The position numbers and the translations under genes are program-made. From Candidatus Omnitrophota bacterium (GTDB lineage Bacteria > Omnitrophota > Gorgyraeia > Zapsychrales > JBAZNR01), in the NCBI GenBank assembly GCA_041649175.1, contig JBAZNR010000001.1, forward strand, positions 258,332-322,331: DNA of 64,000 nucleotides. The letters are read 5' to 3'. Below the pieces are notes generated by a model. It saw only the letters and a program-made list of their open reading frames with translations, was not told the DNA's origin and did not search any database. Positions 23,935-64,000 of this stretch are shown here, piece after piece. Each line of letters starts with the position of its first letter. The first letter of the stretch is position 1.

Positions 23935-23935
23935 T

Positions 23936-31370: not shown

Positions 31371-31517
31371 AGAACGTGTTCCTTATCCGAATATAAGAAA
31401 TGGTTAATAGAAATTTGTAGGAGAAAATTTTATTTCCGAGAAATTTGATCCCAAAAGAAATATTCGAGAGTTTAACACAAGGGCAATGCGAAGGTCAAGA
31501 TTTTTTAGGAAATAGAG

Positions 31518-31561
31518 AAAGGCGCCTGTCTTGCCATTTTTGCGGCAAGACAGGCGCCTTT
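31518..31561 (-). terminator. rho-independent terminator downstream of PilZ gene 31596..31925
   Basis: AAAGGCGCCTGTCTTGCC-loop-GGCAAGACAGGCGCCTTT hairpin, with a T-rich run on the minus strand. Confidence 0.6.
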
Positions 31562-31595
31562 CGTTTTCAACATCTTCCCGTGCTTTTGAAAAACC

Positions 31596-31925: not shown

Positions 31926-31997
31926 GGCTTCCTTTCTCCGTGGCTTTTAAGCTGTCTATTCCCCTCTCCTTTAAAATAGACAATAGGTTAAACATTT

Positions 31998-32025
31998 GGG
32001 CGCCTGCCTTTTAAGGCAGGCGCCC
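31998..32025 (-). terminator. hairpin terminator downstream of PilZ gene 32037..32360
   Basis: GGGCGCCTGCC-TTTTA-GGCAGGCGCCC. Confidence 0.5.
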
Positions 32026-32036
32026 ATATATTCATT

Positions 32037-32360
32037 TTAAGCAAAATGCTTGCTTAAACTTGCGCGCGAACCATCCAGAATTTCGGTAAATGTCATGCCC
32101 ACACGATAAAGGTCGGATTCCAAAATCTTCGTAACCCAGCGCACTTCCCCTACCGCCACCACCGGCTCTCCTTCAGGCGTTAAGTTAAGCTCTACCAACA
32201 TCTTAGTATCTATCGGAATACGGTTTTTAGAAATAAACCCTACTCCGCCTTTACTGATATCGGTCGTTTGTGTGTCCGAAAATCTTGCCGCTTTTTGCGA
32301 AACAACCGGAACCTGGCAATCGTAACGGGCTGATTTTCTTTTTTCTGCTGCTGATGCCAT
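32037..32360 (-). CDS. single-domain PilZ protein (c-di-GMP receptor family)
   Basis: 107 aa with RKSAR (RxxxR) and DISKGGVGF (DxSxGG) motifs. Confidence 0.7.
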   Translation of the reverse strand: MASAAEKRKSARYDCQVPVVSQKAARFSDTQTTDISKGGVGFISKNRIPIDTKMLVELNLTPEGEPVVAVGEVRWVTKILESDLYRVGMTFTEILDGSRASLSKHFA

Positions 32361-32475
32361 TTTAATGAACCTCCATTTATATTGTGCACTATCATTTCAC
32401 AAAATACAAATTATTTTTTTATTTTTTTCTCGTCGGAAAAATAAAATAAATTTCCTATTCAAAAATAATTTGTAT

Positions 32476-36402: not shown

Positions 36403-36479
36403 CACGCCTCCTCTGTTGGATGATATTGTTTTTATTTCCACATTTCGACTGAACATTTATCTTCTCCTTTCGATCAAGA

Positions 36480-40496: not shown

Positions 40497-40575
40497 TCTG
40501 CTCCTTTTGCTAAGATGTTGATAAAAACGATCTATAGAAACTTGACGCGCGGACGCGTCAGACTGATTTGATCTG

Positions 40576-43500
40576 CTACAAATGAAGCATTTTTCTGACA
40601 ATTCTTATCTCCTTTCCAAAACTGTTCCCCTGAAGTTGATAAAAATAAACTCTCGGAGGTAAGTCCGAAAGATAAACGGTGATGGGGCGAATGATCACCG
40701 CCGGAAGTGACGGATCCGGAACGAACGGATAAATAGCGAAAACATCTACATAAGAACAACTATCTAAAAGATAACGGCGGATTTGGTTCGTCCGCCAGGA
40801 TAAAAGCGGCGTGTCGTGGTCGGTTGAGTCGAAATCTTGTGAGAAAATATATGAGTCTAAGGAAGATGAATCTTTGAGGGTTTCTTGAGCAGGCGCGATT
40901 TTAAATAGACTTGGATTTTCCTCCGGCGGAGAACGCGCGTCGTGAATATTATCTTTTCCACCTGATACATTATTAAGATCAGCGTTACCATGCCCAAAAA
41001 TTGTCCGCGGGAATAAAATAATAACCGCGGCAACGATCATCAAAAATGTGCCGAATCCACGTTTAAGAATTCTTTGGGGAACATTAGTCTTTATCGGAAG
41101 AGAGTTTGTTCGAGAACCTTGCTCCTTGGCTCCAACCCAGGCATTGTCATCCGTAATGCTTGAAAATGGGATCGTGCCGTTATCATCCACATGATAAAAA
41201 GTTATCTGAGCACCGTTTCGAACAATGCGTTTGGTTTCCACAAGTTTAATATCCCGGGCAACACCTTTTAATAATTCTTGAGCCGGCACAATACGAATAA
41301 GCGTCTTTCCGTTGCGTTCTGAAGATTTATGCACCATATAATCGCGCACGCCATTTTCTAATAGATAAAGTTGGGAAAGAAAATGCGCCAAGGCGATCCG
41401 ATGATCTCTTTTTAACTTTTCAATAAGACAGTTATTGTAAAGACCGAGAAATTCAATAACCGATTTTATGGTGCATGGAGACTGTCGAAAGGAAGGATCT
41501 GATCGAGAAGGGTCATCATCGGGAAAAAGGCTGTTTGCGGAACCAAAATCATTTTCACTGCGGACAAGTCCGAAAAATACAAAACTTAATAAAGAAATGC
41601 TAACTGAAGAAAAATTTTCTATCGGCCAAAGGCCTATCGGCGGGGCGTGGGCCGTTAGAGACAGCCAATCGCCAAGCTGAACAATCATTGTCTCTAACGG
41701 CCCGATCAATACTCCTAAAACAGTTGCGGCGATCATCAAAGGTAAAGCGATAAAACCAGATGAGCGAGGTAAAGAATCCTCCAATAAACTTTTCTTGCCA
41801 AAAAACTTCTTTAATATGGGCCTGAGTTTCTCAAGGACATCAGAAAATTCATTTTCTACCGCGCTTTTTTCAATATCTAAAAGCTTGGCCTCAATTCCAT
41901 CCTTAGACATCCTTTCCCCGGATTTCCTCAGCTTCTTTTTAGCTTCATCTAAATTTTTAGATCCTTTTAAGATATTCAGTATCCATTCTTCAATCAATGC
42001 CCTTTTAAAGCGCTGAAAAAGCTCTTTTGAATCATGGCCTGATTCAAGCGCAAGGATAATACCGGGAATACGGCTATCACGCAAAGCCTTATAGGACATG
42101 GAAAATACCTGGGCCGTTTTTCTTTGGTTTCCGCGTTTTTTCTGCAAAACTGTTATGATTTTCTCGATAAAATCGTGGCTAATAATTTTCTTCCGGCGGA
42201 TCTTATCCTCTTCAGCGCTCTTCGAATTTTCCAATGCCTTGTTCAAACTTTCAAGGATCTCTTGATTATTCGCAGATACTGCCTTCTCGCGAATGGTAGA
42301 AATCCTGCGGTCTAAACTTTTTTTTGCTATATTTAAAGTTTTGGCTGCTTTTCCTCGATCTCCCCTCGCATCTTTTAAAGCTTTTATAGTTTCTTCTGTA
42401 CGGGACGGCAACAAGACTTTCTTTTCTGTCTCTAATGCTTTAGCTAAACGATCAAGAACCTCTTTTTGGCCTGCTTTTACAACTTTTCTACGAAGCTTGG
42501 GGATTCTATCGCGCAAACGCTCAAGAGGAATGTTAAGTGTTTCAGCCGCTTGTTTTTTGTCTCCTTGAGCAGCTTCTAACGCTTTTAAAATATCTTCCGA
42601 ATAAGACGGTAATGCTACTTCTCTGCTTCTTGCTTCGCCTATAGAAAAAGCAAACCGCCCAAATAACAACTCTAATTTTTGAGAAAGCATGCTATCGGAA
42701 GATTCTTTGGCAAAATCATCCAATCGTAATAAAAGCCTCCCTAAGCATTGCAGTGGAACCTGAAGGTTTGAGGCCGCCTCTTGCGCGCTTTCTGATATTT
42801 CTAAGACACTGACAATGCGCTCAGTATAAGTTCCTATAGAACAAATCTCTTGTAGACGCCGCTCATAGAAAAACATATGATACTGAGAAACTGCCGCTTT
42901 AAATTCGTTTAGCTGTAAATAAAATATCTTTTTACTGATCTTATAGCCGCTTCGTTGTATGGCTTCTTCTTCATCACCATAGGATTCTTTTAATTTATCC
43001 AAGAATCTTTTGACCCGGTCCGGGCACAATATTTCACTTAGCTGCTCTTCAATACTTATAGCTGTTTTCTCCCATTCTCCACCTTTATCTTTTGCTTCCT
43101 GCTCAATATCTTCCAACCATTGAATAAATTTTGTCGTAGAAATACCGTTTTTCGCATTGAGCAAATTATAAAAACGCTCCCGGCGTGATGCTGATTTTGC
43201 GTTGATCCTCTTTGCAACAGACAAGATCCTTTGCGATTTCTCTTGAAAAGACATTGCCTCGGCAGAAACACTAGCTGTCTCATCGCTTAATGAAGATCTT
43301 AGATATCTTCGCAATTCATCTAATGAAAAGACTCTTGCGATAAGCTTTAAACTTTTTAATTCCCTCCAATGCTCTTGATCAACTTCTGCTTTGGCAGAAT
43401 TAAACAGGATCACTCGCAACAATACATCGAAATGATTCTTAACAGCCTTACAAAACTGAGGAAATTCTTCCGTATGGAACTTCTCATATTCAAAGTCCTG

Positions 43501-46500
43501 GATGAATCTTCTCCACAAATAATGCATCGAAAACACGGTTCTTTGAGATTCCGCCTTCAAGGCCAGGTCACAAATCCAATAATAAATTTCTGTATACCGG
43601 GCAAAAACCCTGTCGTACTTAATAAGCGTCTGGCGCAAAACCTTCGCGCGGGCTTCATTATCTTCCTGGATTGAATTTATCAACTCTTGCGCTTTTTCTC
43701 CCGACAGAGGATTGTCGTTATGATCTTCCGCGATTTTCTCAAAGGGAGAATTTCTTAGGCTGCGCCAAATCACTTCATCTTCCAGACATAGTATTGATTT
43801 TGAAAATCCCGGATCTCCCTGACGTGCCGTGCGATTAAATAATTGTTGGTCTTGGCGCCCAAACTTATTAGGTTCTGCCTGAATCACGACAAGCCCGCCC
43901 ATTTTGGAAACTCCTTCGCCTAATTTAATATCTTCTCCACGGCCCATCATGTTTGTCCCGACGGTAACCATCTTCTTTTGCCCGGCAGTAGCCACAATAT
44001 CAGCTTCTTGCCAAGCGTTAATGCCGTTTAGGACTTGGCAAGAGATCCCGTTCGCATTTAACAGCGCTCCTATTTCATTGGCTGTTTCAATATAACAAAC
44101 ACCAATAAGCACAGGATTTCCCTTAGCGTGCCATTTTTTTATTTCCTTAAGAACTTCCTCATATTTCTTTTTCTTTGTTCCATAAATCACCACGCCTAAG
44201 TCAGTCCGGCGGCAAGGCTTATTACGCGGGATAAAAGATGTCTTTAAGCCATAGTATTTCTGCAATTCATCCTGCTGGCGGCCAATACTTCCGCTCATTG
44301 TTGACGCTCTCTCGGCAACAGATAAGAAAAAGTGATGCTGCGTCATAATAAGCGCCGGGTCATATACTTGCGAAACGGGCAAATGCTCTTTTGTTTCAAT
44401 AAATTGATGAAGTTGTAAAGCCCAAATATGTTCCGGATGAAGCCGGCCCGTATATTCGTCCACGATCACGATCCTGCCATTTTGCACAACATACTCTTTT
44501 TCTCTGCGATAAAAATAATGGGCTTCTAGCGCCACAAAAATAAGCCGTTCAAAATATTCCTGCAAAGCTTTTTTTCCCTTGGGTGTGAGCAAAGCTATTT
44601 GCCGATAATCTAAGCGATAATGAACTCCCTTTGCTAATAAGGATTTATAAATATTGTTACGCGCCATTTCGACGGGATCTTCCTCTTCCTTTTGCTGATG
44701 GTCATTTTTGCTGATCCAGGAAATGACCTTGACAGTGTCGCGAAACCACGCATGATCGATATATTTCACGATAAAATTTTCTACCAGCTTTGCGCGCGCG
44801 TTTTTTCCTTTCTCGGTAAATCGGACATGCTTTGTAGCCGGATTTAAAATGTAATCTTCCCCCGGTAAAAGCCTATTTAAGGATTCCTGATAAAGGATCT
44901 TGTAAAAAGCACCCATATCCCATCCGTCTTTGACCGTCGTTATGATAGGCTCAAAAGCATTATCAATAAGTGTTTCATCGCCTTCATCAATAACGACAAA
45001 AGAAATTTTTCCGGGCCGGCGTACTTGTTGCTGCGCGTCCGTAACTAAATGATCTCGTTCTATATCGTACACAAACTCATCATTAACGCCGTAAGTGATA
45101 TCTGCCGCGTAGGCTTGCTTTCGATAAAGCCGCAGATTCTCTTTTTTGTTGTGTCCATTGCCATTTCCATTCCCATTTTTAGGAACTTCTAAGGGGCGTA
45201 AATTTTTATAATGCGCGCTGCCGTTTTGATAGGAAGGATCGAAAAGGTACGACTGGCCCCTGACAACAACACCGACGCTTAATCCTAAGAAATGATATAT
45301 GCCGCCCATATCATGAGCATCACGCAAGGCAAGATTTTCTTTAACCGTTGCCACATAGACGCCTTGCTCTTTTAAAGCATTTAAGTAAACAGCCGAAACG
45401 GCCGCTAATGTTTTCCCTTCGGAAGATTCCATCTGGATAGCGCGGCCTTGATAAAGTTGAAAGGCCGCCAAAAGCTGAACATCGTAAGGGCGCATTCCCG
45501 TTACCCTGAAAGCCGCCTCACTGACAACCGCAAATGCTTTCGGCAAGATCTCCTCCAAGCTTCCTCCGTTTTTAAGCCGCAGACGAAATTCTAATGTTTT
45601 GGCCCGCAATTCTTCGTCAGAAAGACCTCCAAGCTCTTTTTCAAGTTCTCTAATGCCGCTTAACAAGAGATTACTAAAAAGAACCTCATTTTCTGAGGGC
45701 AAATTATTAACATCCATAACCTTCGAGAGAGAAAGCCCAAAGTTTTTAGCCAAAACATTCACCACATTTCTAGCAATGCCTAATTCTTTGGCAGAAAGCG
45801 TTCGGTTATTCTTATTTCTCCAAAGTGCGCGTATGCCTGCCCACTCTTTAAGCTCTTCCAGCGCCAAATACAGCGTTGGCTCATCTAAAATAGCGATGAA
45901 ATTCTCTTGTGCTTGCCGCATATCACCCTCGGAATAATTTTTCATCAAAATCCTTATACCTCTTGTGCTTATCTTTAACATTTTTGCGGCTTCGGTTTTA
46001 TTGCGGCCGGCCGCTAAAAACGCGTGAAGAACGGCTCTTTTCTTGATTTCATCCCATGTTAAGGCATCGTTTTTAGCAATGTTCAAATACGGCAATATAA
46101 AAATAAAATCATGAAAGGTGTTTTGGTTTATTTGATATTCGGCTATTTTTTGATCTAAATCTTCCTTTGACAGTCCTAAGTTTCTTGCCGCATTTTCTAT
46201 ATCACCGCCGCATTTCGCCAATGCAAAAAGAATTTGTTTTTTCTCTTTTAATGTCAATTCTGCGACGGGGTCTGATTCTTCTCGGTCTTTTTTTGATCTT
46301 TTGCTAACCGCCAAAACCGCGGCGGCAAAAACCATCTCCGTTGGGGCGTGAGGAAAATAGCCAAACACCGTGATCAAGATAAGAACCGCGCCAAGAGGAT
46401 AAACAAGGTTGTAAATCCTCTTTTTCTTTAAAATAGAATAGATCCTCCCCCGAAGATATCTCTGCAGCATAATGGGGTAAAGATTGCCGAAAATATTAAA

Positions 46501-49500
46501 GATCCCTAAAACAGAAAGTAAAATCATTCCCGCTATTTGAATAATTCCTGTTGTCAGCAAACTTACGGCCAATAATCCGCCCATGACAGAAAGCACGATC
46601 AAAGAGTATATGTAGTGGATCGTTTCCATTTCCCTGGTTGTTGTCTCTTTTCTTTTTAATGCCTCAGCGGAGAAGTGATCGACAAATACACTCGGCGGTA
46701 ATTTCTTAATATCTCTCAGCAGCCATTTTCTAAACATCTTGATCCCGAGAAGCTCATATAGTTTGCCGCTTCGTTCGAAGAATTTCGGCTTAAAAACAAA
46801 CTCAGCCCGACGAGGATCTTTTAAAAATACATTCACTAAAGATGTGGAGAAGTAGGAAATCACAAGAACACCCGCAATCAAGATGAGAGAAGCTATCCCA
46901 ATAAGAACGGCCGATAAAGAAATAATAGCGAAGGATTTAGAGGAAAGAATGGTGGTGGCAAGAAATATCGTGGAATTCATCGACCCAGGGGCGAAATTTC
47001 CAAACAGATATTCCAGCATTCCCCAAAGTACCACAAACCCTGTAAGCCCAAATCCGATCCAGCCGTGAAGCTTTTCTCCATCAAGCTCTTTTAAAGAATC
47101 GTCTTCTTGCCGAGAATGAATATCCTCAAGGATGTTCTTTAAAGGTTGATGAACTCTTTGGACAGAAATAATTTTTGGGCGCAAGTATGGTATTTCTCTC
47201 AATACTGCGACACTCAGCCGAGGAGAAAAATTGCCCACTTCAAAAAAAAGATTAGTTCGGATATTGCGAAGTGCTAAGCCCCCGATATACGCACTCTTGC
47301 TCTTACCTAATTTTATGCCTGGCCTCATCACTTCAAAAGTACTACCATTCGCCCCATTAAGCACATCACCCATTTGCAAATCTTTAAGTAAAAATTGATC
47401 AGCAGGAATAGTGAGGGTTGCCATTTTTTCTTCTTGTGAAGGAGAGGAAGGAGCCTGAGCCAAAGAATTTACCGGAGAAACACTTACTACCGCTGTTAAA
47501 ACTGCGGCAGAGAAAATAAAGCGTGGGTTGAGATATTTTATCGGTGGCGCCTGGGCGAAATGGCCGAAGAGATATCCCAAAACTCCCAACAATCCTACAA
47601 ATCCAAACAACACCCAGCTGCAAAGTGCGGTTTCTTGGGAATCTAATACAAAACCTTTTGTTTGTTCTTTAGCTGACTGAGATCTATCAAGGGAACTCTT
47701 CCGAGCAAGGGCATGACCGGCTAAGACAATAAATTCGCCATTTCCCACCGGGAAGAGCAGTTTATTAGCTATGAAAATGTAAACTGCTTTTTTCATGTGC
47801 TCTGTAGATTTAATGATTTCCAACGAGGCTTTATCCAAGATTCTTTCCAAAGTTAACCGCGCCCCAATACCTGCCGCAAGGCAACATCGTTCTATTTCTT
47901 GAAGATCAACCAATACAAATTCGCCCAACGTCCCTAGTGCTTCTTTTGAGTTAATTTGAAATCTTTTTTGGAATCTGGAAATATATACCGCAATCTCTTC
48001 TGGAGTAAGAAGTTTCTCCCATGCCCTATCGGGTAGCGTGATAGACGAAACATGTTTTAGACGCTTAAATTCCCCGTTCATTCCGGGAAGAGCTAAAATT
48101 AAAATTCCATTGCGTTCATATCGAAATATAAAGCCGCGCTTATAGCTTAACGCCCCTAATATTTTTTTGATGGTTACGACAGAATTGATCATCGACAACG
48201 GCACTTGATCATAAACGATAAAAGTATTTTCCGTAAGGCCGTTAAAATAGATCGATAGCATGTCGACCCAAAATGATTCAAAATTGTCTAGGATTGGCTG
48301 GCTTTGTTCTCTGGAAAAACCCCAAACTTCAAGATTACGGATAAGTTTTTCATCTTCCCGCAAAAAAAGCGCAGGAACACTATTAGAAACACTTTGTGGA
48401 CGACTTGCTGAGCGTTTACTTTTTCCGGAGGATCGTTTTGAAGATACTCTATTTTCTTTCTGACTACTCTTTCTTAGAACATCATCTTCGTAAATCTTAT
48501 TCTTAATATCTTCCAGCAAGTGTTGTAACTCGCGGATACGAACCAAGAATCTTAAATCATCAATACCTTGGCTTAAAGGATCTAGTTGCGACAATGCCAT
48601 CTCGGCATCTTTATGATCAAAGTATTCTTGATAAATTTCGATAAGCGCCTTGGTCTTTGAGCGTAATTTTTCTGCATTCGCATCAGGAAAATTTTTCTTA
48701 GGAGCCCGCAAAGCAATCCATTGACTTAAACGTACGTCTCTGGTTTTTGTCGGTTCCTTAAAAACCGGAATGATATTCTTCAAGTCCCTAGCAGGAGGCA
48801 CCTGCCGACCGATATATGGATCAATTAGGTCTAGTAGCGCCTTAAACCGTGAGCGTGGCAAAGTTTTAAGGAAGAACTCGGGATTACTATCAATAAGCTG
48901 AGCAATTTGACGTGATGTAAATCCAAAAAGGCTTAAAACAAGATACAAGAAATGGAGGAAAACGACAGACTCTAAAAACCTTTGCTTGGTCCAATTTGAA
49001 ACCCGGTACCAATACGTGCGGCTAAAAGAAACCCCGTAGTTTTCAGGAATACGCATCCGTTCTAAAATCTCTTCCGGTAACCGAAGCCTTTCCCAAACAA
49101 CATCCGGAACAGGCCCAATATATTCCGCATCATCTCGTCCGGATAGAACAGATTCTTTTCCCGCCTTGTGCTGCGCCTGTATTTCTCGTAATTCTTTCCG
49201 AATCCTGTCTTCCTTATAATTAGATATTATAAGAGCAGAGATGGGCATTTTGAATTCATCCTGAAATATTCTTGCCTTCCTTAAATATTCCGACGGAGAA
49301 ATCTTTCTTTGGATATATTTCGGAAGTCTATGATATTCAATACCGCGGGCACGTAATTCTCTTAAAGCCGCCGGACGCCCGCTATTGCTCATTTCTTTGG
49401 CTACGCGCATTTTTTTGTTCTCGATCAAAAGAAGCCTTTGGCTATGCGCTGGCTCTGCAGCCAAATCACACCGTAACGGTTTAAATTCAACGACTAAACT

Positions 49501-55500: not shown

Positions 55501-58500
55501 GTCGTAAACAACAACGCCCGCGTTACGCCCAAATTCGAGATGTTTTTCAGCCAAAATAATATTGGTATTGATGACCTTGCCATTTTGAGTCCAGCGAATT
55601 TCTTTCGCCTCTTTGTGTCCGACGATCTGCGGCAGTAAAAGATTTTCCGGGGTTAGATTAAGTTCATCATCAAAGTCAGCCCAAATAATACCGCCTGGTT
55701 TATACCCGCTTTGCCCGCGTTTTTTGGGGCCAAAGTGGGCATTGCCGCGCTCAAAAACAATATCGCTAAAATTATTTGCCCTAATCGCCTCTACTAAACG
55801 ACGATTCAACTCTTGGGCAATATCTTCCATCGGCAATAAATTCGGCCGATCATTTATTTTTATGGCAATATCTTCATCGGTTAGTTCTTGCGGATCTTTA
55901 TCAAGTTCCTGGGCAATGAGAAGAATTGATTCCGGATGAAGTTTCTTAAGTAAATGCGCCGTAATATGCGGCAGCATTCCACCATGAACCATTAAGCGGT
56001 CGTGGATATGAAAGGCGGCCACCATTTCACCTGAAAGAATGGAATTTCGCATTTCCGGAATGATTTCAGTGGCTCGCTTATCTTCCGGTTTTCCCTGAAA
56101 ATGCTGGAGCTCATGATTTCCGACAAGCGTTACCAAACTATTAGCCTTTGATAAAGCCTTTCGATGCAGCATGTGCAAATAACGATACAGCTCTTTTTGA
56201 TATTTGCCGCGGTCTAAAATATCCCCGATCACCACAACCGTAACGCCGCACACTTTCCACTCATCATTCATGAAATCGCTTCCAAATTCAATGATGCCAA
56301 GCTTACTTAAGGCATTGCGCACGCCCCACAGCTCTCCGTGGGGGTCACCAATGATAACCGTTGTTACGGCGGCTAAGGTTTGCGCTTCAAGCAATTCCCC
56401 TTCAACTCGAATAATGCCGTCCCCAAAAGTAAGCGAAGCGTTTGTCCATGTTTCTCCTTTATCGGTGGAAAATACCGGCCGGATAGAATATGATCCCGGG
56501 CGGGTCATGAGCACTCTTGCCTTAAAAAGATAGTTATTACCCTCAAATCTTAGGAATTCCAGAGGAGTGAAGGAATATGGGGCTTCATCTTCGAATTTAA
56601 TTTCGAGAGTTGCCGCTATGCTATGAGCAAAAATAGCGTCGTGAAGTTTCCGGGAAACATACGCCTGAGCATAGATCTCTATCATTTGACCGGATACGAC
56701 TTTAACCGTTTTTCCGGAAAATGGGCCGGCATAACTTTGTGCCGCGATATCCAAATTGCCGGCCCAAACAATTGGGGCATGCCCTAAGTCGCGATTAAGA
56801 ATTCGTGCAAAATCAGCAATGGAGAATTCTTCAAGCTGCATTAACTCCCCGGCCAGGTCCAACCGGACCTGGGCCCACTCTCTTAAATTCCATTTTTGGT
56901 GCGCGACCCATGCCCCCTGCAAAAGTTGAGTAACAAGATAAAAATAAACCCTTAATAGAAATAACTTTTCCGCATCCAAGGACAAATCAACTGGGGATAA
57001 ATGAACCGTGCGTTTAGAATATGTTAATCCATATCGCTTTTGATAAGTCGTCAGAAATTCGTGCATCAATTCTTCGATGTGCCCTATCAATAAGGCGTTA
57101 TTTTTTCTGGCATCAATAAGGCCCAACAGCGCGTTGGCTAATTCTTTTGTTGCCGCGTCAAATCCGCCTAATTCAGCATCGATCCAGGCCATCACGTGGC
57201 CGGAGTCGCTATCAACAAACCAATTCCAGGGGAAAGGATCGCCGTGAGTAAGAACTTTTTGCTCACCTAAAACAACGTTGTAAAATTTATTGAAGAAATC
57301 TATAACGGCGGGAGGATGAACCGAGGCAAGGTGCTCTTTGAACTCCGGGTTATCGATCATGCCCATTATTTTGTCTAACAATGTCGCATAATCGCTTCTT
57401 GAGACCGGCTGAGCCGTTGGATAGCTTTTGTGAAGGCGCGCTAAGCCGCCGGCGGCGGAACGTAACGTTGCCTTAACTTTTTCAATATCAGACCGGGGAC
57501 GATGTAAAAAGCCAAATTGACTTATTAACCCTAATCGATTTAAATTCTCCAGAACAAGAGCCCTGGCATTGTCATTGAATAATAGAAGATGGGGGCGCTT
57601 ATACGGATTAGCCTCAACAAAAAAACATTTCTCGGCTTCATAAGCCTTGGGGGCACTTGTTTTGTCCATATAGATCTTAATAATGTATTCCCCCTCTAAG
57701 GCTTCAAAAACAATGCGGCTTTTTACCGAGATCAAAACTCTCCCCTTTAAGTAATTAACTAACTCCGGCAAGCTCATATCACCGGCGGCAAAGAAATTAA
57801 GCAATTCTTCAATGTATTTTAATTCCTCATCTGGACTCTCTTGCTCTTTGACCATCGCCCAAAACCCAAGAGGGAAAAATATTCCGGCAAAACCGTTAAG
57901 AGATTGTCCGTCTTCTTCATCCGACAATAGTTTACCGATCTTGGCTCTTAGCAATCCTACAATCGCGCTATGAAGCTGGGAAATACGGCTTTCTGTTAAA
58001 TTTAACAACCCCCCGATTTCTCTCATGCTCATGCCGTTAAAATAGTATTGTTGAATGATCGTACGGTCCCGGGCGGGAAGCTTTTCAATATATTCACGCA
58101 AAATAGAAACTTTTTCTAAGGCGACAACCCGTTCGTGAATGTCTTCATCCGACGGAAATAATGCTTTTAAAGAATGTAGATCGTTGCCTGTCGTTCTTGA
58201 AATGAAATTATCCAAAGAATCAAATCCGCTTTGACGGGCATAAATAATCGTACGCAGCTCTTCGATCCCGATATGAAGCTCCGCCGCTATGGCTTCTTCC
58301 GTCACATATCCTCCGGAAATAGCAGCCAATTTATCCACCGCTTCATTTAATTTATTGATTTTGGCATACATGCCACGCGGCAAATGATCTTGGGAACGTA
58401 GGAAATCGATGAGCTCTCTTTGAATACAGCCAAAAGCGTAAACTTCAAACGGAACATCTTGGCGGTTATTGAAATCCCTCGCGGCCGTAAACAGCCCAAT

Positions 58501-61500
58501 AGAAGCTACCTGCTTTAATTCTTTGAGCATTTGGGAATCTTGTTGAATTTTTTGGGGTAGTTTTCGATAAATATATCTGGCAACGCGATCGGTAAGATAC
58601 GAATACTTCTTTATCACCTGTCGATATTTGTTTTCTTCTTGGTTTTTCTCGTAAACAGCTTTTTCGCTTTCAAAATGAATGCCATAAGATTTAATTCGCC
58701 ATTGAAGATTTCTTCTCGACAAACCAAGCTCCTGGGATGTTTGATCCTTATCGAATTTATTTTCCTGCAAAGCATTCAATATTTTCTGACGTTTAGCCTT
58801 GAATTTAAACTCCCGATGAATTTTTTTCACATCAATTCTTAGTTTCTTTAAGTACTTATATAAAACTACCTTACCAATATCCAGAAATTCGGCTAACTTA
58901 GGAACATCGCCCTGAAACTGGTTAAGCAAAGCTTTAAGAACTTTCTTTCTTTTCTCTCGGATAGTTCTTCTTACAGGAGCATCGGAACGCAATCCTGATT
59001 TTCTTATATGGCCATATAAAGTCCCTTTTCCGATTTTTAAGAATTCGGCTAACTTAGGAACATTATTCTGGAACTGATCAAGTTGGATCTTAAGGGTTTC
59101 CCTTCTTTTGTCTCGAACAATTTCTCTCACGCGAATGCCGGCGCGCAATAATTCACTATTTAATACGGCCCTGTCGCATTCGAGAAATTCGGCGGTTTTC
59201 GTAATATTCCAGTCATGCTTTTCTAAAAGCTCTAATAATTGTTGTTTTCGCGCTTTTTTATCTTTTCGTTCCAAGGAGAATAACTTATAGCGGCTAAATA
59301 ATAATTCCCGGAGGTAGCCCTCACTCACACCGCGAGCTTCGGCTGTCTTGGCAATATCATCACCGTGCGCTTTAAAGTCTTCACGCAATTGTCTTTTACG
59401 ATTGCGTTGTTTTTTCTCACCCGGACGAATACCATAACGGCTAATCCGAGAACGCAGCGTATGAATGTTAATATTTTCACCTTTGGCTAATTCTTCGGTA
59501 TCCCAATGATATTTGTTGAGTAAACGTAAGAATTCGTTCTTGCGCCGATCTCTTTTTTCTCGTCGCTTAGACCTTGGATGGTTAGGAGATTCTTCTTTTG
59601 TATTTGCAACCATGCCAAACACAGCAAAAGGAAATATAAAGCTATTAAGGGCTTCTGTTTTCTTATTCGGCGAAACAGGTTTTAACCGAATTGCGAACGT
59701 GGTTCCCTCTCCCGGAGTAGATCGCGCGACAAAGATCTCGCCACCCATTCGCTCGATACTACGTCGCGCGCCGCTTAATCCAACACCAGTCCCATCCATG
59801 ACAACTTTCTTGGCCTGATCAGTGCGATAGAAAACTTTAAATACCTTCGCCATATCCTCAGGGGCCATTCCCATACCATTATCGACAACATCAACCCGGA
59901 CCCAAGTTGTTCCGTTATTGTTCTCCTCGGAAATACCGATTTTGACCAAATTACCGCCGTATTTTTTGGCATTTGTCAAAAGTTCGATCATCACCTGCTC
60001 TAATTTCTCCTGATCTATTAATACCGGCATGCGTTGCTGAAGAATATCAACAATAAATAATGGATCGTGTACAACAGCTTCTCCTGAGGTTTTGACATGG
60101 TTCTTAAGAAAAATCCTTGGCAGCCATGAAGCTAAATTAACATCCTTTATAACAACGGCCGGCTCAACGATCTTTCCGGAAACTAGATCATGCAGTCTTG
60201 TCGTTAAAAGCATGAAAGTTTCATAGGAAGATTTTTGTTGTTCTTCTGCTTCCACCTCCGGGATCCGTGATGAGTCCAGCAAATCCCGTGTTGCGTTAAT
60301 AAAAGTAGTCAAGGAATAGTACGTCACTCTCAGGCGCTTAGTCTTTTGCCCAATATCAATACGCAAAATGATCTCTTCTCTTGTAACTCGAGCGAGGTCT
60401 TCCATAAGCTGATTGAGAGACCCGCTATGAACCGATAAAGCTTGCATTCGATATTGCTGTTCTTCGCCGGGAACTGCGTCTAGATCCAAACGGGAAAGAG
60501 CCCCTAACATGCTTTTTAAGAATTGAGACAGGATGTCGATCTCATTTTCTCTTAGCATGCTGAGATCTTGTTCGCCGTATTCCTGTAATAGGCTCCCCTT
60601 TCTTTCTACTAAACCTTGCCAATCTTGTGTTTGGTTCATGAATTCCCGGGAAACAAGCTGAAGTTTTGCCAATATATCGACAAATTCTGGAAAACGCTTG
60701 GCGGCTTCATAAAGCCCTGATAGATAATTACGAATATCATGAACGGTTTCCACGATATTGTGGGCGTTACGGCTCATATTCAATGTATTCTCAACACTCG
60801 CGTCTAAATTAAGCCGGTCCATCACCAGCGTAACTAATTGCGCTATCATCAAAATGTATTTCGTTTTAAGCTGTTGGTCTTCTTCGCTATAAAACAAAGG
60901 CTGGGAAACGGATAGATCGGCCGATGAGGCGGCTATTTGCCAATTATCCATCATCAGGATGTAAGAAATTTCTCCGCTAAACGCGTCAATAATACCGATA
61001 TGAAACACCTCTTCTACGCGCCCCGCGTGCTTACCGCCGAAATGAACGCGGTCGGATTCAAACATAAGCCTATCAACAAAATGTTCATCATCCATTAGCC
61101 CATTGTCGCCGATAAAATGATCACTGCGTTTCTTGGTATGCAATAAAAGCGGCTTCCCCTGAGCGTTCATGCGCTCAAAAGTATTGAGCGCTCTTAATTT
61201 CTCATCGCTGGAATCAGAAAATACTTCTTTGTGACGGCTGGGGCGAAATCCACCGCGCGAGGCATCCAAAACATGGCTGACCTGCCAAACATTGTCAATT
61301 TTTCTAACCTTGTAAAGCCTAGCCCGGCCGATGTGCAGGACTTGAATGATCGCTTTACTAAAGATATCCTCCACTTTTTCTTTGTGTTTAACGGAGAAAA
61401 GGGCTACCGCCAATTGAATGAGATTTCCCACATGCCAACGCGACGGCGAATAATCGACCAAGTTGCGCACGGCTGCCCCTGAGAATAAAACATCGAAAGA

Positions 61501-63996
61501 CGCGCCAGCCAAAGCTATTTGTTCATTATTGGACATACGCCGCAGAGCTTCGATATGTACCTTTGATGAGCGCAAGACCCGTAAGAATAACCCCATGATC
61601 TTTTGCGCTGATCTAAGCGGCCCGCTTTGATCGATCACCTCTTTGAGTATCTGGCGCGATAAATATCCCTTTGAATAACTTCCCGATAATTCTTTCAGGC
61701 GTACCTTAAGGGCAAGGACAGGTGTAATGAAAATATGGTTTACTCTTCCCGAAATATCGATAGGTGCCGAGGTTTTTAATTGGAAATTCTCCAGAAGAAG
61801 GCTCATGGTCTCATGTTCTTCCGAGGCTTTTTGAAGCGCGGTAGAAATATTTACTTTCTGCTGATAAGTAAGGTCTTGGACTTGGATCTCGTTTTGTTGC
61901 GGCAAAATTCCCTGCTCAGCACCAACAAGGCTGTCGCGAAGCGCATCTATTGCTTCGATCAAATCCTGATTAGCGATTTGCAAATTGGAAAAGACGGAAT
62001 TGATATTTTCCCACTCTTTATTCTTCAAAACCCGACGGAAGAAAACCCTAAAGATCCCTAAAGCTAATATTTTATCGCCTACGCGCAACCGCCTTGATAG
62101 CATCGTCATGTCAAGATCAGAGAATCTTAAAGCCTTTATTTGCCTTTTACCAATGTCCATGGCAAGATCATTTAACTCATTTTCAAAATCATCGTCTAAG
62201 GAAAGTTTATAGTCACTAAGAGCTTTTAGATAGACCCTGAATTTCCATGGATTATCTCTAAAGTAAAGAATGCTTTTGTGGCGGGCTAGGGCTTCCTCAT
62301 CGCCATCCAAATGCGAAAATTCATGGCGGAAAATATCTTCGCGGATAACCCAAGAAAGGTCAAAGTGTTCGGCAGGAATATGAGCCAAGTGAAAGAAATA
62401 TGGATGTAAGAATATGGTTTTGATTTCCCCATCACTGAATGCGATGTGGCTACGGGTCAGATCAAGGTCGGTGGTGATAACTAAACGCCAAGTACCTACG
62501 GCCGGCGGTGCGCGTCCGTTTTCGCTAAGGCGTTTAAAAACATTTTGCATAATTTCAAAATGCCCATCGTAAAAACCTTCAGGATCCGTTAAATCAAACC
62601 CGGATATGAAGACATCGGTTAATGTCTTTTGAATACCGAATTGTTCATCCGCCTTCTGGGCGGCTTCAGCCGGAACGCGCAGAGGATAAGCGGCAGTAAC
62701 AGGAAGATTCTCCGGACAGCTGTTATGAGGAGAAAAGTCATCATTTACATTACTCACCATTCCGAACAATGCCGGAATTAGTGAGTCGAATATATTTCCG
62801 ACTGAAGGACAGAAGCATGCCAGAGAAACTTCTTCTAATCTTGTCAGCAGAAATATTTCCTTGGGATCATATCCGGTCAGCACAATAATGTTCTCTCTGG
62901 CGAGAATAAATCTTTCCACATGAAAAACGTTAGGAAAGATCTTAAAGGCCCGTTGAACACCTTCAAGAGACGTAATATAAAAAAGTTTCCTGTGACGGAT
63001 AATTTCTTCTATGGAAACAGTTTTTCCAAAACCTTTGCTCAGTAAATACTTAACGATGATCTGTAGGTCATCTCGGATAAACTCATGTAAATTCTCCCTG
63101 GCTTCGCGCTGAGATTCAATCTTAAAATCCCGTTTGATCCTTTCAATGGAATGTTCGATTTCCTGCCCGCTTAATAAACCTTGAATAGCTTTATCGCTGA
63201 CAGATATATTTTCAATTTGTCCCATTGTAGAATCTTTAGGCAGGCTTTCCGCTTTGGGAGATCTTAAAATTTCAACTCCGTCTTTAAAATACCGGAAAAC
63301 AAAGCCGTAATCTTGGCTTAAAATGCCTAAAATCCGTCGGGTAATCTCAGTAGAAGCGGCAAACTGTGAATATTTAACAATGTCTTTCCCCTTTTGCCCG
63401 GCTGAATGAGACTTTACCATTTCCAGATATCTCGCAAAATGAGAAAAATAGGCAAACTCAATATTGCGTAATATTGTGCGGATTCTATCATTGGATAAGT
63501 TCCATTTTTTAGTTAACAACTTTATCAGATTCCGACGTTCTTGATGCGTTAATATAGAAATCTCTTGCTTACTGACTACAGTAGCACTTTCTTTCTTTTG
63601 GCTTGAAGCGGCCGCTAAGGATTTATTGCGGGGCTTAGAGGATTCCTTTTGCTTTTGAAGAGCCGCTTTTAAATTATCCAAGCTGAGATGAGTTATTTGC
63701 TCCAAAACCGGCTCGAAACCAAATTCTTCGTAAATGAGAAGCTTTTCAAAGAAAGAAGACGGCGTATTTCCGGCTCTTACCCATTTTGGAAGTTCTTTGT
63801 AAATATAGCCTTTTCGCTCTAATTCACGCAGTGCAAATTCCCTATCAACGCCAAATTCTCTTTTCACTTTGACAATCCCATTTTTGATGCTCAGGTAACG
63901 CTGTGCGTGGACAGGTTCTGTTTCTTGATCAGCCCCATAAGGCTTGAAAGACACAATAAGATCACGGCTTTTATTAATTCTTCTAAAACTAATCAA
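40576..63996 (-). CDS. giant multidomain protein of at least 7,806 aa; signalling, enzymatic and SecA-like mosaic; N-terminus unresolved at the window edge
   Basis: A single stop-free reading frame of 23.4 kb in AT-rich DNA. The first in-window codon is TTG and the frame stays open to position 64000. Recognisable domains are listed as separate entries below. Confidence 0.85.
   Translation of the reverse strand: [7806 protein letters not shown]
42037..42609 (-). other. giant ORF domain: C-terminal array of three Fis-type HTH motifs
   Basis: [91 protein letters not shown] (aa about 7130-7320). A further pair lies at aa about 5910-6020, just before the SecA-like module. Confidence 0.55.
43297..45669 (-). 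other. giant ORF domain: complete SecA-like motor (NBD1 with Walker A, NBD2, helical scaffold)
   Basis: [76 protein letters not shown] (Walker A rc verified at about 45400-45430); [45 protein letters not shown] (DEAD-like); NBD2 [16 protein letters not shown]...[15 protein letters not shown]; scaffold [20 protein letters not shown]. Each matches a canonical SecA signature in the expected order (aa about 6110-6900). Confidence 0.75.
46297..47634 (-). other. giant ORF segment: cluster of about 8 predicted transmembrane helices
   Basis: [150 protein letters not shown] (aa about 5455-5900). Confidence 0.6.
50077..50589 (-). other. giant ORF domain: OGFr_N-like (opioid growth factor receptor conserved region) domain
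   Basis: [44 protein letters not shown] resembles the ..H.YIQWLFPL.E.G.N...P.LT core of PF04664 (aa about 4470-4640). Confidence 0.4.
52897..53355 (-). other. giant ORF domain: P-loop kinase (Walker A [9 protein letters not shown], 6-phosphofructo-2-kinase/zeta-toxin-like)
   Basis: [17 protein letters not shown] (rc verified at about 53300-53345), at aa about 3548-3700. Confidence 0.55.
53662..54039 (-). other. giant ORF domain: class I SAM-dependent methyltransferase fold
   Basis: Motif I [11 protein letters not shown], then GVDIS, LIEGDI and EEGGYIVI (aa about 3320-3445). Two or three further MTase-like folds follow at aa about 4040-4220 and 4250-4430 ([10 protein letters not shown]...[21 protein letters not shown]...[11 protein letters not shown]). 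Confidence 0.55.
54637..55374 (-). other. giant ORF domain: ROK-family sugar kinase fold
   Basis: [28 protein letters not shown], ELGHV (aa about 2875-3120). Confidence 0.65.
55597..56364 (-). other. giant ORF domain: PPP-family calcineurin-like metallophosphatase
   Basis: GDPHG (IIGDPHG), GDxxDRG ([10 protein letters not shown]), GNHE (LVGNHE), HGG (MVHGG), at aa about 2545-2800. Confidence 0.7.
56737..57819 (-). other. giant ORF domain: aminoglycoside-phosphotransferase/choline-kinase-like kinase fold (APH family)
   Basis: [42 protein letters not shown] matches the HGD...N and (I)D(F/W)E..G.GD..DLA catalytic and activation motifs of PF01636 (aa about 2060-2420). Confidence 0.6.
57922..58599 (-). 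other. giant ORF domain: sigma-70 family factor-like (regions 2, 3, 4)
   Basis: Region 2-like [41 protein letters not shown]; region 4 [45 protein letters not shown] (aa about 1800-2025). Confidence 0.7.
58642..59529 (-). other. giant ORF domain: array of four Fis-type helix-turn-helix motifs
   Basis: [94 protein letters not shown] (aa about 1490-1785), in a basic, Arg/Lys-rich context. Confidence 0.6.
59677..60009 (-). other. giant ORF domain: GHKL/histidine-kinase-type ATPase (HATPase_c)
   Basis: N-box [11 protein letters not shown]1 VDNGMGM (rc at about 59868-59886 verified), G2 GTGVGL, at aa about 1330-1440. Confidence 0.7.
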
Positions 63997-64000
63997 GATC

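Follow-up and report, generated by a model that had tools for sequence, protein, structure and literature searches.

What kind of product is specified by a reading frame that stays open for more than 7,800 codons and runs out of the stretch of DNA in which it was found? In order to answer this question, we analysed the whole of that stretch, 64,000 nucleotides from an Omnitrophota genome (hereafter the window). Its MnmG protein matches, at 100% identity, NCBI MFA5059255.1, which is encoded on a 1,225,647-bp contig of a Candidatus Omnitrophota MAG, and the named relatives of MnmG, at 66-77% identity, all belong to the Omnitrophota.

An earlier note on the same DNA had treated the frame as an unknown kind of object. 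This view had to be abandoned: giant mosaic open reading frames (ORFs), in which hydrophobic segments are numerous and a truncated SecA lies near the C-terminus, are documented and common in the phylum. Seymour et al. (2023, PMC10066038) studied 116 Velamenicoccia genomes and reported ORFs longer than 20 kb in 77 of them, and further giants were described by West-Roberts et al. (2023; bioRxiv 10.1101/2023.11.21.568195) and by Nielsen and Lui (2026; bioRxiv 10.64898/2026.06.07.730766). For the 39,678-aa protein of V. archaeovorus, the detection of peptides has been reported, and transcription of each giant ORF is believed to yield a single mRNA. It is still fair to say, as the earlier note did, that such proteins are essentially uncharacterised functionally.

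The window holds the last, 3' third of a gene that occupies at least 72.6 kb of the chromosome. Its product is one of the giant multi-enzyme and regulatory membrane-associated proteins on record for Omnitrophota, and we consider it probable that it forms a single, mostly cytoplasmic chain with a proposed role as a platform. What is new here relative to the described giants is a short hydrophobic junction that recurs between the units.

Extent and integrity of the reading frame

The stop-free frame lies on the minus strand, from position 63999 to position 40576, and comprises 7,807 sense codons followed by a TAG at 40576-40578. Consequently, the end missing from the window is the 5' (N-terminal) one, and the C-terminus and the stop codon lie inside. 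The frame had previously been placed at 40576-63996 and seen to run into the window edge. Both statements hold, except that this span was counted from the first TTG whereas the stop-free frame itself reaches 63999; nothing had been said of the minus strand or of the missing end being the N-terminus. Since the base composition gives a random codon a probability of 0.061 of being a stop, 7,807 stop-free codons are expected by chance with a probability of about 10^-213, and the claim that the frame is not fortuitous was borne out. The description of the DNA as AT-rich has to be softened, the window having a GC content of 43% and being only moderately so.

An independent Logan assembly (run SRR8542065) was 100% identical to the window over shared stretches of 16.6 kb and 20.6 kb, which include the last 9.9 kb of the giant gene, the only part of it in the window that is directly comparable. 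On Logan contig SRR8542065_7826 (83,333 bp), the gene is called at 24,212 aa, fills the remainder of the contig and is still cut by the contig end. Its lower bounds are at least 24,212 codons and at least 72.6 kb; the earlier minimum of 7,806 aa was true, but about threefold too low. The domain, motif and topology results given below cover the 7,807 residues of the window, about the last third of the product, and at least 16,400 N-terminal residues lie outside.

Could the long frame be an assembly chimera, or correspond to separate genes expressed through internal initiation or transcript processing? Some risk of chimera always attaches to a metagenome-assembled origin, and the second assembly bears on the last 9.9 kb only. 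Nevertheless, this reading is extremely unlikely in view of the length of the stop-free run and of the agreement between the two assemblies. Furthermore, GC, GC3 and codon usage are even along the ORF and similar to those of the neighbouring genes (codon-usage cosine of 0.96-0.98 within the ORF and of 0.95 to the neighbours), no tandem DNA repeats that might mislead an assembler were detected in the window part of the gene, and giant ORFs are common in complete long-read Omnitrophota genomes. Only six in-frame starts preceded by a Shine-Dalgarno (SD)-like sequence were found in the 7,807 codons, and no SD-plus-start combination occurs within 60 codons after any of the nine junctions described below. 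Because no internal start signals follow the junctions, we infer that the giant is translated as one chain.

A mosaic of enzyme and regulatory units

Pfam and NCBIfam recognised HATPase_c, HTH_8, Sigma70_r2/r4, APH, Metallophos, ROK, Methyltransf, OGFr_N, CrtO and SecA in one chain (Table 1). These searches recovered all the contents that the earlier note had read from the translation (signalling, transcription, small-molecule kinases, a phosphatase, methyltransferases, membrane segments and a translocation motor). Its count of at least a dozen unrelated folds was right as to the mosaic, in which about ten domain families are confidently recognised. It had also held that the gene is of neither NRPS/PKS nor adhesin type; indeed, the window part contains no condensation, KS, AT, ACP or Ig-like or cadherin-like adhesin-repeat Pfam families and no tandem repeats.

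Table 1. Features of the giant gene, in the order of translation, and of the region downstream of it (window coordinates; aa, residues counted along the window part of the product)
Feature	Position	Strand	Evidence or remark
Giant gene, C-terminal 7,807 codons + TAG	40576..63999	-	ORF call; N-terminal part beyond right window edge
Head module copy 1, shortened (aa 1-392)	62824..63999	-	internal duplication; lineage-specific, 'FKP..A...EP.HA.R' block
Junction J393 (aa 393-415) LACFCPSVGNIFDSLIPALFGMV	62755..62823	-	motif, 12-mer scan
1,035-aa unit, unannotated N-part then histidine-kinase core	59650..62754	-	HATPase_c aa 1329-1440; VicK-type alignment from aa 1201
Junction J1451 (aa 1451-1464) LNSFIFPFAVFGMV	59608..59649	-	motif, hydrophobicity, 12-mer scan
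Six tandem Fis-type HTH units (aa 1487-1778)	58666..59541	-	Pfam
Sigma-70-family module, FliA/WhiG (sigma-28)-like, regions 2 and 4 (aa 1779-2024)	57928..58665	-	Pfam, NCBIfam
Junction J2034 (aa 2034-2050) LNGFAGIFFPLGFWAMV	57850..57900	-	motif, hydrophobicity, 12-mer scan
APH-type phosphotransferase (aa 2173-2292) and calcineurin-like metallophosphatase (aa 2547-2687) unit	55939..57483	-	Pfam
Junction J2864 (aa 2864-2877) LSAFLPMGALFSIK	55369..55410	-	loosest copy
ROK sugar-kinase-like (aa 2883-3058), SAM methyltransferase (aa 3327-3478), weak P-loop kinase-like (~aa 3540-3700)	52900..55353	-	Pfam, NCBIfam
Junction J3703 (aa 3700-3721) LQGTFAFVMLFVFSLPLAWGTV	52837..52902	-	borderline TM-competent
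Unit M5, 178 aa	52303..52836	-	no detectable family
Junction J3900 (aa 3900-3918) LSCFILSACLPLGLVWATV	52246..52302	-	borderline TM-competent
Unit M6, 304 aa	51334..52245	-	no solid family; weak Dam-like match, E 0.0014
Junction J4223 (aa 4223-4235) LACFLPFGLWGTV	51295..51333	-	13 residues
Unit M7, 210 aa, weak methyltransferase-like	50665..51294	-	Methyltransf_11, E 0.008
Junction J4446 (aa 4446-4466) LCCFGLPFISLLFCLPALGTV	50602..50664	-	borderline TM-competent
OGFr_N-like unit (aa 4497-4670)	49990..50511	-	Pfam
Junction J4667 (aa 4667-4686) LHGFAFLPLFAPLGMAWATV	49942..50001	-	motif, hydrophobicity, 12-mer scan
Head module copy 2, full version (aa 4815-5440)	47680..49557	-	internal duplication; predicted all-helical core
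Transmembrane block 1 (aa 5456-5899)	46303..47634	-	~8-9 TM-length segments; CrtO-like membrane acyltransferase region aa 5735-5859
Two Fis-type HTH units upstream of SecA (aa 5920-6021)	45937..46242	-	Pfam
SecA motor: NBD1 (Walker A SEGKT, DEGD box), preprotein cross-linking domain, NBD2, first scaffold helix	43555..45666	-	Pfam, NCBIfam, alignment
Two further Fis-type HTH units (aa 7135-7237)	42289..42597	-	Pfam
Transmembrane block 2 (aa 7413-7442, 7462-7481), 165-aa unannotated unit, last TM segment (aa 7647-7670)	40990..41763	-	hydropathy
137-aa C-terminal tail after last TM segment	40579..40989	-	no family
Weak terminator-like hairpin	40543..40560	-	16 nt after the stop codon of the giant
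Secreted S8 subtilase + FG-GAP repeats, 1,337 aa	36480..40493	-	starts 82 nt after the giant gene
Second secreted S8 subtilase + FG-GAP repeats, 1,326 aa	32476..36456	-	paralogue of the first, 41% identity

The visible part of the chain opens with a head module, followed by a sensor-kinase-like unit, six Fis-type helix-turn-helix (HTH) units with a sigma-28-like module, an APH kinase with a metallophosphatase, a ROK kinase with a methyltransferase and a weakly supported P-loop kinase-like region, then four small units and, after these, a second head module. Up to the latter, one copy of the junction stands between each unit and the next. The units so delimited are protein-sized (about 180-1,035 aa), and several are multi-domain without an internal junction. 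After the second head module come a polytopic transmembrane (TM) block, a SecA motor flanked by Fis-type HTH units, a TM hairpin, a last TM segment and a short tail. The window part contains 10 Fis-type HTH units (six in tandem, then two and two).

In the sigma module, Sigma70_r2 and Sigma70_r4 scored above the Pfam cut-offs and TIGR02937 (sigma-70 superfamily) reached 76.4 for a cut-off of 42.9, whereas FliA_WhiG (TIGR02479) fell below its own (139.9 versus 189.6). As judged from these profiles, the module is a FliA-like member of the sigma-70 family and no certified FliA. The 1,035-aa unit matched HATPase_c with 79.6 bits; an H-box-like 'VHDIRNYLSGL' was noticed by eye, and HisKA gave no Pfam match at E ≤ 0.01.

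For the head module, seven relatives, all distant, were found among 1.84 × 10^9 representative proteins, and none in GTDB genomes or JGI metagenome contigs; the alignment is too divergent for pattern design. Its predicted structure had a pLDDT of 58 overall and of 75-89 in the core, and the model gave no match in the PDB at E ≤ 0.001 (Foldseek). Sequence searches of the PDB with the unannotated units found nothing, and an AlphaFold prediction made without alignment for residues 3690-4240, a junction-flanked region, was unusable (pLDDT 35). An HExxH at aa 559 raised the possibility of a zincin protease embedded in the chain; this was rejected, since Pfam gave the site no support and a single match of this sort is expected by chance.

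A truncated SecA motor

The SecA module sits between the two TM blocks near the C-terminus, with Fis-type HTH units on both sides. It aligned to residues 17-663 only of T. maritima SecA, stopping at the first scaffold helix. SecA_DEAD, SecA_PP_bind and P-loop_SecA were matched in Pfam; SecA_SW was not, and the wing domain, the two-helix finger and the C-terminal domain are absent. The best NCBIfam SecA score was 468 bits against a cut-off of 862, short of the canonical SecA architecture.

With canonical SecA and SecA2, the module has in common an NBD1 with Walker A GKT and DExD box, the PPXD, an NBD2 with GRGxDI and the first scaffold helix, and it shows 32-40% identity to the SecAs of many phyla. 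It differs from canonical SecA in being part of the giant chain, from residue ~6,100 onward, and in lacking the helical wing domain, the two-helix finger/IRA1 and the C-terminal zinc-binding tail. When the module was used as a query, canonical SecAs at 32-40% identity swamped the results and no giants appeared among the top 120 matches; in JGI contigs, only one ordinary SecA of 861 aa was matched.

A recurring hydrophobic junction

Nine copies of a hydrophobic junction of 13-25 residues join the units, with the pattern L.[GSAC]F...P.[GA]..[WF][GA][TM]V. The full pattern was observed five times for 0.006 expected, and its C-terminal half six times for 0.03; no other frame or gene in the window contains it. 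The motif was defined post hoc on one protein. An ungapped profile built from four copies proved over-fitted, the held-out copies ranking 5th to 16th and not above the shuffle maxima. It was replaced by an unsupervised 12-mer self-comparison, in which eight of the nine copies were linked within the 40 best pairs. Synonymous codons are also conserved within the motif, giving a nucleotide core TGGG[CG]GACGGT[GA], and the flanks of the junctions are acidic or neutral. The detectable relatives of the head module, all of them distant, lack the motif. Lipobox, sortase LPXTG, PEP-CTERM-type and double-glycine (C39) signals were set aside, as on inspection their residue patterns do not fit the junction.

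Membrane topology

Along the window part, 26 hydropathy peaks were found, nine of which are the junctions and about 12 TM-length segments. Insertion free energies were estimated as a simple position-independent sum of hydrophobicities on an approximate scale. The estimate was at least +6 kcal/mol for six of the nine junctions, versus -2.8 to +2.7 kcal/mol for most segments of the TM blocks. On this approximate scale, six of the nine junctions are probably too short to span the membrane. In those that set the sigma factor and its Fis-HTH array apart from their ATP-dependent neighbours, the uncharged run is only 11-15 residues long and includes Pro and Gly, and dG was estimated at +6.8 to +8.3 kcal/mol.

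In the published DeepTMHMM analyses of other giants, every such segment is scored as a TM helix and much of the enzyme content is assigned to the outside of the cell. Transposed to this locus, this default describes a surface protein in which every hydrophobic segment, junctions included, spans the membrane and successive units alternate between cytoplasm and exterior; the external enzymes would act on prey or host surfaces, or enter the prey as effectors using its ATP and SAM. Such a topology suits the Omnitrophota, which are probably predatory or episymbiotic. The peptides of the V. archaeovorus giant rise on attachment to prey, secreted proteases and sugar uptake are encoded near the present gene, and three junctions are borderline TM-competent. 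However, since exactly one junction separates the members of each pair, strict alternation forces one of them outside, that is, either the sigma factor with its Fis-HTH array or the ATP-dependent neighbours (histidine-kinase ATPase, APH kinase, ROK kinase, SAM methyltransferase). The junctions concerned are precisely the short Pro- and Gly-containing ones, and the published authors themselves call such localisations 'highly unlikely'. We therefore regard strict alternation as very unlikely here. More generally, cytoplasm-type modules flanking junctions too short for spans argue against the simple topologies assumed to date, in which one hydrophobic segment equals one TM helix.

In the single-chain, mostly cytoplasmic arrangement that we favour, the four junctions between ATP-, SAM- and DNA-dependent units would not cross the membrane, given how short they are and how much Pro and Gly they contain, and may serve as shallow membrane staples or flexible joints. 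Spans would be provided only by the longer junctions (J3703, J3900, J4446 and perhaps J4667) and by the TM blocks, so that every recognisably cytoplasmic module, SecA included, would face the cytoplasm. The exterior would be left to small units alone (M5, the OGFr_N-like unit and the tail). The SecA-derived motor would most likely drive the insertion or translocation of segments of its own chain.

Possible cleavage or recombination at the junctions

Flavivirus polyproteins, which are cut at internal signal sequences, and MARTX toxins string unrelated protein-sized units together in one product by means of short recurrent elements, as the giant does. The giant could similarly be a bacterial polyprotein, one precursor cut at the junctions into about a dozen proteins, among them a free sigma-28-like factor and a histidine kinase, by a signal-peptidase-like, prepilin-peptidase-like or other dedicated enzyme; the junction would then be a processing site and not an anchor. 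In both size and composition, the units between junctions match whole proteins, and most junctions (six of nine) are implausible as TM anchors. Moreover, specific residues are kept, and not mere hydrophobicity: a small residue [GSAC] before F at the start, and P.[GA] followed by an aromatic and a small residue [GAS] before [TM]V at the end, which resembles the anatomy of peptidase sites (a helix breaker and a small -1 residue). Cleavage of giant proteins, at points that are not known, was proposed by West-Roberts et al. (bioRxiv 10.1101/2023.11.21.568195).

The two large subtilase genes directly downstream might supply the protease, but both products bear signal peptides and thus act outside the cytoplasm. 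The window part of the giant yielded no protease domain, and its single HExxH has no family support. The acidic or neutral flanks of the junctions are unlike the n-region of signal peptides, which is positively charged. Cleavage has not been directly demonstrated for any Omnitrophota giant, and the conserved junction codons suggest shared descent or a role at the mRNA level, neither of which a protease site requires. The likeness to viral and toxin polyproteins is limited in the same way: the giant has no detected protease module in its window part and no positive n-region at its junctions, its units are housekeeping-type bacterial enzymes and regulators, and the gene sits on the chromosome of a bacterium that is free-living or episymbiotic. 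On balance, the polyprotein appears rather unlikely.

A bolder proposal is that the junction is a functional signal common to Omnitrophota giants, either a polyprotein processing site (releasing, for example, a membrane-sequestered sigma-28-like factor) or, through its core TGGG[CG]GACGGT[GA], a recombination joint by which modules are added. We hold this to be clearly unlikely. If true, the recombination joint would explain how genes of 70-440 kb are built, and either form would be the first defined sequence rule for the biology of giant genes.

Neighbouring genes

Besides the two subtilases, the downstream part of the window encodes a sugar ABC importer, MFS_2, GH94, GH2 and a LacI regulator. 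The secreted S8 subtilases, GH94 and the sugar ABC importer agree with the gene context published for this class of giants. No type II secretion or pilus genes were found in the window, and only the carbohydrate-import part of the class neighbourhood is present. Alignment of the subtilases against GTDB genomes returned generic subtilases of many phyla, at no more than 41% identity, and none adjoins a giant ORF. An exact look-up of the GH94 protein of the window and of P0121 gave no recorded match. Returning to the favoured single chain, the assembly may be a membrane-tethered signalling and sugar-processing platform of fixed stoichiometry, which would work with the adjacent secreted subtilases, the GH94 phosphorylase and the sugar importers while the cell feeds on its host or prey.

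Place among the Omnitrophota giants

The nearest described kind is the Archaeovorin type (West-Roberts et al. 2023), the type protein of which is the 39,678-aa V. archaeovorus LiM protein and which, in the scheme of Nielsen and Lui (2026), equals 'multi-enzyme' class 1 / regulatory module 1. The present giant shares with it the host phylum and the length class (>20 kb; here at least 72.6 kb); its at least 24,212 aa compare with >30,000 aa in the 'giant' set of West-Roberts et al. Other common traits are the many unrelated enzyme and regulatory Pfams that tile one chain with none dominant, the presence of HATPase_c, methyltransferase and ROK domains, hydrophobic segments at intervals of a few hundred residues, carbohydrate import nearby, poor sequence conservation (a sequence singleton), and divergent SecA_DEAD and preprotein-binding domains without scaffold/wing, placed after TM anchors near the C-terminus.

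In contrast to that type, the 7,807 residues contain no glycosyl transferases, glycosyl hydrolases, NUDIX, HEAT repeats or C39/S8 peptidase domains, the S8 peptidases being encoded here by separate downstream genes. The part in the window is dominated by signalling and transcription (the sigma-28-like module and the 10 Fis-type HTH units), which the papers do not highlight; the junction sequence is defined here and not in the literature, and type II secretion genes are missing from the window. Dockerin and TSP3 arrays gave no Pfam matches in the window part of the giant.

Residues 3690-4700 had no match at E ≤ 1e-5 among 5.8 × 10^9 proteins, and no close relative of this giant was found in any of the collections scanned (GTDB, JGI and protein libraries). 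As the libraries returned no self match and head-module matches of at most 3,561 aa, very long proteins are probably missing from them, which makes the absence of giant homologues uninformative.

Significance

The locus is one more example of its kind and leaves the picture of what such genes are unchanged. Giant genes make up several percent of the small genomes of the Omnitrophota, widespread, ultra-small and probably predatory or episymbiotic bacteria. The wider question is how such cells make and insert proteins of 20,000-150,000 residues, and whether they cut them. It offers a compact and well-resolved C-terminal third with clearly delimited units. Its junction sequence provides concrete candidate anchor or cleavage points, information that is lacking according to West-Roberts et al.; should this motif turn out to be general, it would open the processing and topology of the giants to direct tests.

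The giant reading frame

The earlier note had described a single frame at 40576-63996 running into the window edge. These coordinates were right, and the frame lies on the minus strand; it is therefore the N-terminal end that is cut, and the C-terminus is present in the window. From position 63999 to the TAG stop at 40576-40578, 7,807 sense codons were read without interruption. At a random-codon stop rate of 6.1%, calculated from base composition, the odds of such a frame by chance are about 10^-213. Along the ORF, GC content is about 43%, GC3 remains at 0.38-0.43 and codon usage is even (cosine 0.96-0.98 against the whole). The other genes of the window have a matching GC3 of 0.416, and the codon-usage cosine between them and the giant is 0.95. 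No tandem DNA repeats were found.

Exact protein look-up of two genes just downstream of the giant led to the Logan contig SRR8542065_7826 (83,333 bp), the DNA of which is 100% identical to window 29884-46456; a second look-up extended this DNA to the last 9.9 kb of the giant gene. On the Logan contig, the gene call yields a product of 24,212 residues and extends to the other end of the contig. Thus, the true protein is no shorter than 24,212 aa, and only its last third lies in the window. Regarding the source, MnmG (window 9254-11146) matches NCBI MFA5059255.1 of a Candidatus Omnitrophota MAG (1,225,647-bp contig) at 100% identity, and all its named relatives (66-77% identity) are from Omnitrophota. 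The giant reading frame is genuine.

Unit order and conserved modules

Pfam and NCBIfam searches bore out the domain content reported in the earlier note.

Units of the giant (from Pfam, NCBIfam and an internal profile search; aa counted from the codon at window 63999) and features of its neighbourhood
Feature	aa	Window	Strand	Remarks
Head module, copy 1	1-392	62824-63999	minus	
1,035-aa unit, C-terminal histidine-kinase core	HATPase_c 1329-1440			Pfam/NCBIfam
Six tandem Fis-type HTH units	1487-1778			fused to sigma module
Sigma-70-family, FliA/WhiG-like module	1779-2024			140 bits; under FliA cut-off, over sigma-70 superfamily cut-off
APH-type kinase	2173-2292			
Calcineurin-like metallophosphatase	2547-2687			
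ROK sugar-kinase-like domain	2883-3058			
SAM methyltransferase	3327-3478			
Weak P-loop kinase region				after SAM methyltransferase, same unit
Two units, no family detectable	3722-3899; 3919-4222			
Second methyltransferase	4236-4445			weak
OGFr_N-like unit	4497-4670			
Head module, copy 2	4815-5440	47680-49557	minus	
TM block 1 (TM-length segments)	5456-5899			includes CrtO-like membrane region
Two Fis-HTH units				between TM block 1 and SecA
SecA motor	6112 to ~6815			
Two more Fis-HTH units				after SecA
TM pair	7413-7481			
165-aa unit				between TM pair and last TM segment
Last TM segment	7647-7670			
C-terminal tail				137 aa, after last TM segment
Weak terminator-like hairpin		40543-40560	minus	7-bp stem, 5 G-C pairs, poor T tail; 16 nt after TAG
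S8 subtilase 1		36480-40493	minus	secreted, large, C-terminal FG-GAP repeats; directly downstream of giant
S8 subtilase 2		32476-36456	minus	secreted, large, C-terminal FG-GAP repeats
Two small PilZ-domain genes (c-di-GMP-binding type)		32037-32360; 31596-31925	minus	between subtilases and GH94
GH94 phosphorylase		28950-31370	as giant	
Secreted 1,086-aa protein		25386-28646	as giant	no Pfam family
Sugar ABC importer		22134-25225	as giant	binding protein, two permeases
MFS_2 transporter		19626-21173	plus	
GH2/TPR protein		16886-19234	as giant	
LacI-type regulator		11415-12425		further left of sugar cluster

Alignment of the SecA module to T. maritima SecA is confined to residues 17-663, from NBD1 through the preprotein cross-linking domain and NBD2 to the first scaffold helix. 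The module keeps Walker A GKT, the DEGD box and GRGEDI; compared with the T. maritima protein, it has no wing domain, two-helix finger or C-terminal domain. The two copies of the head module share 33-39% identity, indicating an internal duplication. This module is very rare, with 7 matches among 1.84 billion cluster representatives (27-32% identity), in which it often recurs with a period of about 857 residues; it is lineage-specific. Its core is predicted to be all-helical (pLDDT 75-89), and the predicted core matched none of the solved structures.

Two small repeats were also observed. G[VM]L[GE]YLFG[HN]FA, the second-best 12-mer pair of the giant, ends two TM-length segments of TM block 1 (aa 5472-5483 and 5660-5671, window 47551-47586 and 46987-47022). 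The last TM segment is flanked by LIRIVPAQELLK (aa 7567-7578, window 41266-41301) and LFKIAPAQETLK (aa 7698-7709, window 40873-40908), a pair that scores barely above the shuffle maximum in the unsupervised 12-mer scan.

A junction element between units

Nine short hydrophobic junctions lie between units (window 49942-62823), at aa 393, 1451, 2034, 2864, 3700, 3900, 4223, 4446 and 4667 (named J plus number, the copy at aa 3700 being J3703). They follow the pattern (E/D/K)-L-x-[GSAC]-F, 6-18 hydrophobic residues, P-x-[GA], 0-4 residues, [WF]-[GAS]-[TM]-V, then acidic or polar residues. Shuffles gave an expectation of 0.006 for the full pattern, which was found 5 times, and of 0.03 for its C-terminal half, found 6 times; these figures are optimistic since the patterns were drawn from the same data. 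The motif was not found in any other frame or gene of the window.

In an unsupervised scan, all 12-residue windows of the giant were compared pairwise, with the shuffle maximum as reference. Beside the HTH and head repeats, junction pairs ranked in the 40 best: J3900-J4667, with a score of 41 versus a shuffle maximum of 37-38, and also J393-J1451, J2034-J4223, J2864-J4223 and J3703-J4667. Jointly, the pairs connect eight of the nine copies; an additional one links the N-half of J2034 with a real TM segment, at aa 5644. A profile built from four copies was over-fitted and not decisive.

At the codon level, CTT encodes the conserved Leu in 8 of 9 copies (P = 1.5e-4), ACG encodes the Thr in 6 of 6 (P = 3.6e-4), and the string TGGG[CG]GACGGT[GA] is common to five copies. 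These non-random synonymous sites suggest either a common origin of the junction DNA or a role at the nucleotide level (mRNA or DNA). Some domains have no junction between them; the units bounded by junctions are the size of whole proteins, and several contain more than one domain. The motif is established in one protein only: the collection scans returned no close relative for comparison in other species, and the protein libraries appear to lack very long proteins.

Membrane topology

Junction insertion energies were approximated by a position-independent sum on the Hessa biological hydrophobicity scale. For six of the nine junctions, the best 19-mer gave an approximate dG of +6.0 to +8.3 kcal/mol, and in five of these six the uncharged run is just 11-15 residues, with Pro and Gly. 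J3703, J3900 and J4446 were borderline (about +1), and most TM-block segments fell between -2.8 and +2.7 on the same approximate scale. Most junctions thus appear, approximately, too short for a TM helix.

Were every junction to cross the membrane, successive units would alternate between its two sides. Junctions of the non-spanning type separate head copy 1 from the kinase unit, the histidine kinase from the sigma-HTH unit, the latter from the APH-phosphatase unit, and this one from the ROK-methyltransferase-kinase unit. These units need ATP, SAM, DNA or RNA polymerase, with exactly one junction per pair. Strict alternation would be functionally absurd because neighbours with such needs sit one junction apart. 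If spanning is limited to the TM blocks and the TM-competent junctions, all recognisably cytoplasmic modules, SecA included, would lie in the cytoplasm, and the only parts outside would be the 178-aa unit between J3703 and J3900, the OGFr_N-like unit and the tail. We infer from this arrangement that the units of the giant may lie mostly in the cytoplasm.

One product or several

AGGAG-type Shine-Dalgarno sites are frequent at the real genes of the window, and just six in-frame ATG/GTG codons inside the giant ORF carry one. None lies within 60 codons after any junction; therefore, the sequence gives internal initiation no support. Pfam searches found no protease domain in the visible part of the giant. 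The HExxH signature HEFSH (aa 559-563, window 62311-62325), considered as a protease signature, had no Pfam support. It sits in the unannotated unit that follows the first junction, is not kept as HExxH in distant relatives, and is compatible with chance (roughly 0.3 HExxH expected per 7.8 kaa).

Genomic neighbourhood

The two downstream S8 subtilases are paralogues (41% identity), and their signal peptides and FG-GAP repeats place them outside the cytoplasm. The first starts 82 nt past the giant's stop, beyond the hairpin, so that the subtilases may be transcribed partly independently of the giant. Their best full-length relatives in GTDB genomes (26-40% identity) are spread over several phyla, and none of these relatives adjoins a giant ORF. 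A sugar-utilisation cluster extends over window 16886-31370; beyond it are ordinary housekeeping genes (LacI-type regulator, MnmG, ThiG, BirA). Every 2-kb bin of the window has a negative GC skew (cumulative -3.0) and nearly all genes, including the giant, are on the minus strand, which fits a single replichore with genes co-oriented with replication.

Comparison with published Omnitrophota giants

The earlier note had regarded the giant as an unknown kind of gene; it is instead a further member of a documented Omnitrophota class. ORFs above 20 kb, little conserved and with few annotations, occur in most Omnitrophota lineages (Seymour et al. 2023, PMC10066038). West-Roberts et al. 2023 (bioRxiv 10.1101/2023.11.21.568195) described 46 giants, the largest of 85,804 aa, all with numerous TM regions and most with divergent SecA_DEAD and preprotein-binding domains without scaffold/wing; carbohydrate import systems lie near them. 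Their cleavage was proposed, not demonstrated, and the cleavage points were stated as unknown. Nielsen and Lui 2026 (bioRxiv 10.64898/2026.06.07.730766) compiled a catalogue of 916 long proteins, the longest of 147,155 aa. They reported 80% sequence singletons and, for one extreme case, a predicted TM helix about every 370 residues. They defined a 'multi-enzyme' class and a regulatory Pfam module that includes methyltransferase and HATPase_c, the ROK kinase belonging to a second, sugar-metabolism module.

Like these giants, the present gene is from Omnitrophota, falls in the same length class, is tiled by unrelated Pfams and punctuated by hydrophobic segments, has a truncated SecA behind a TM block and lies in a carbohydrate-import context. 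Unlike typical members, its visible third lacks glycosyl transferases, hydrolases, NUDIX and peptidase domains; a sigma-28-like factor and ten Fis-HTH units make up its distinctive transcription-type content. A defined junction sequence is described neither by West-Roberts et al. 2023 nor by Nielsen and Lui 2026. What is new here, in one protein, is a specific junction element marking the limits of units, together with the hypotheses on topology and processing derived from it.
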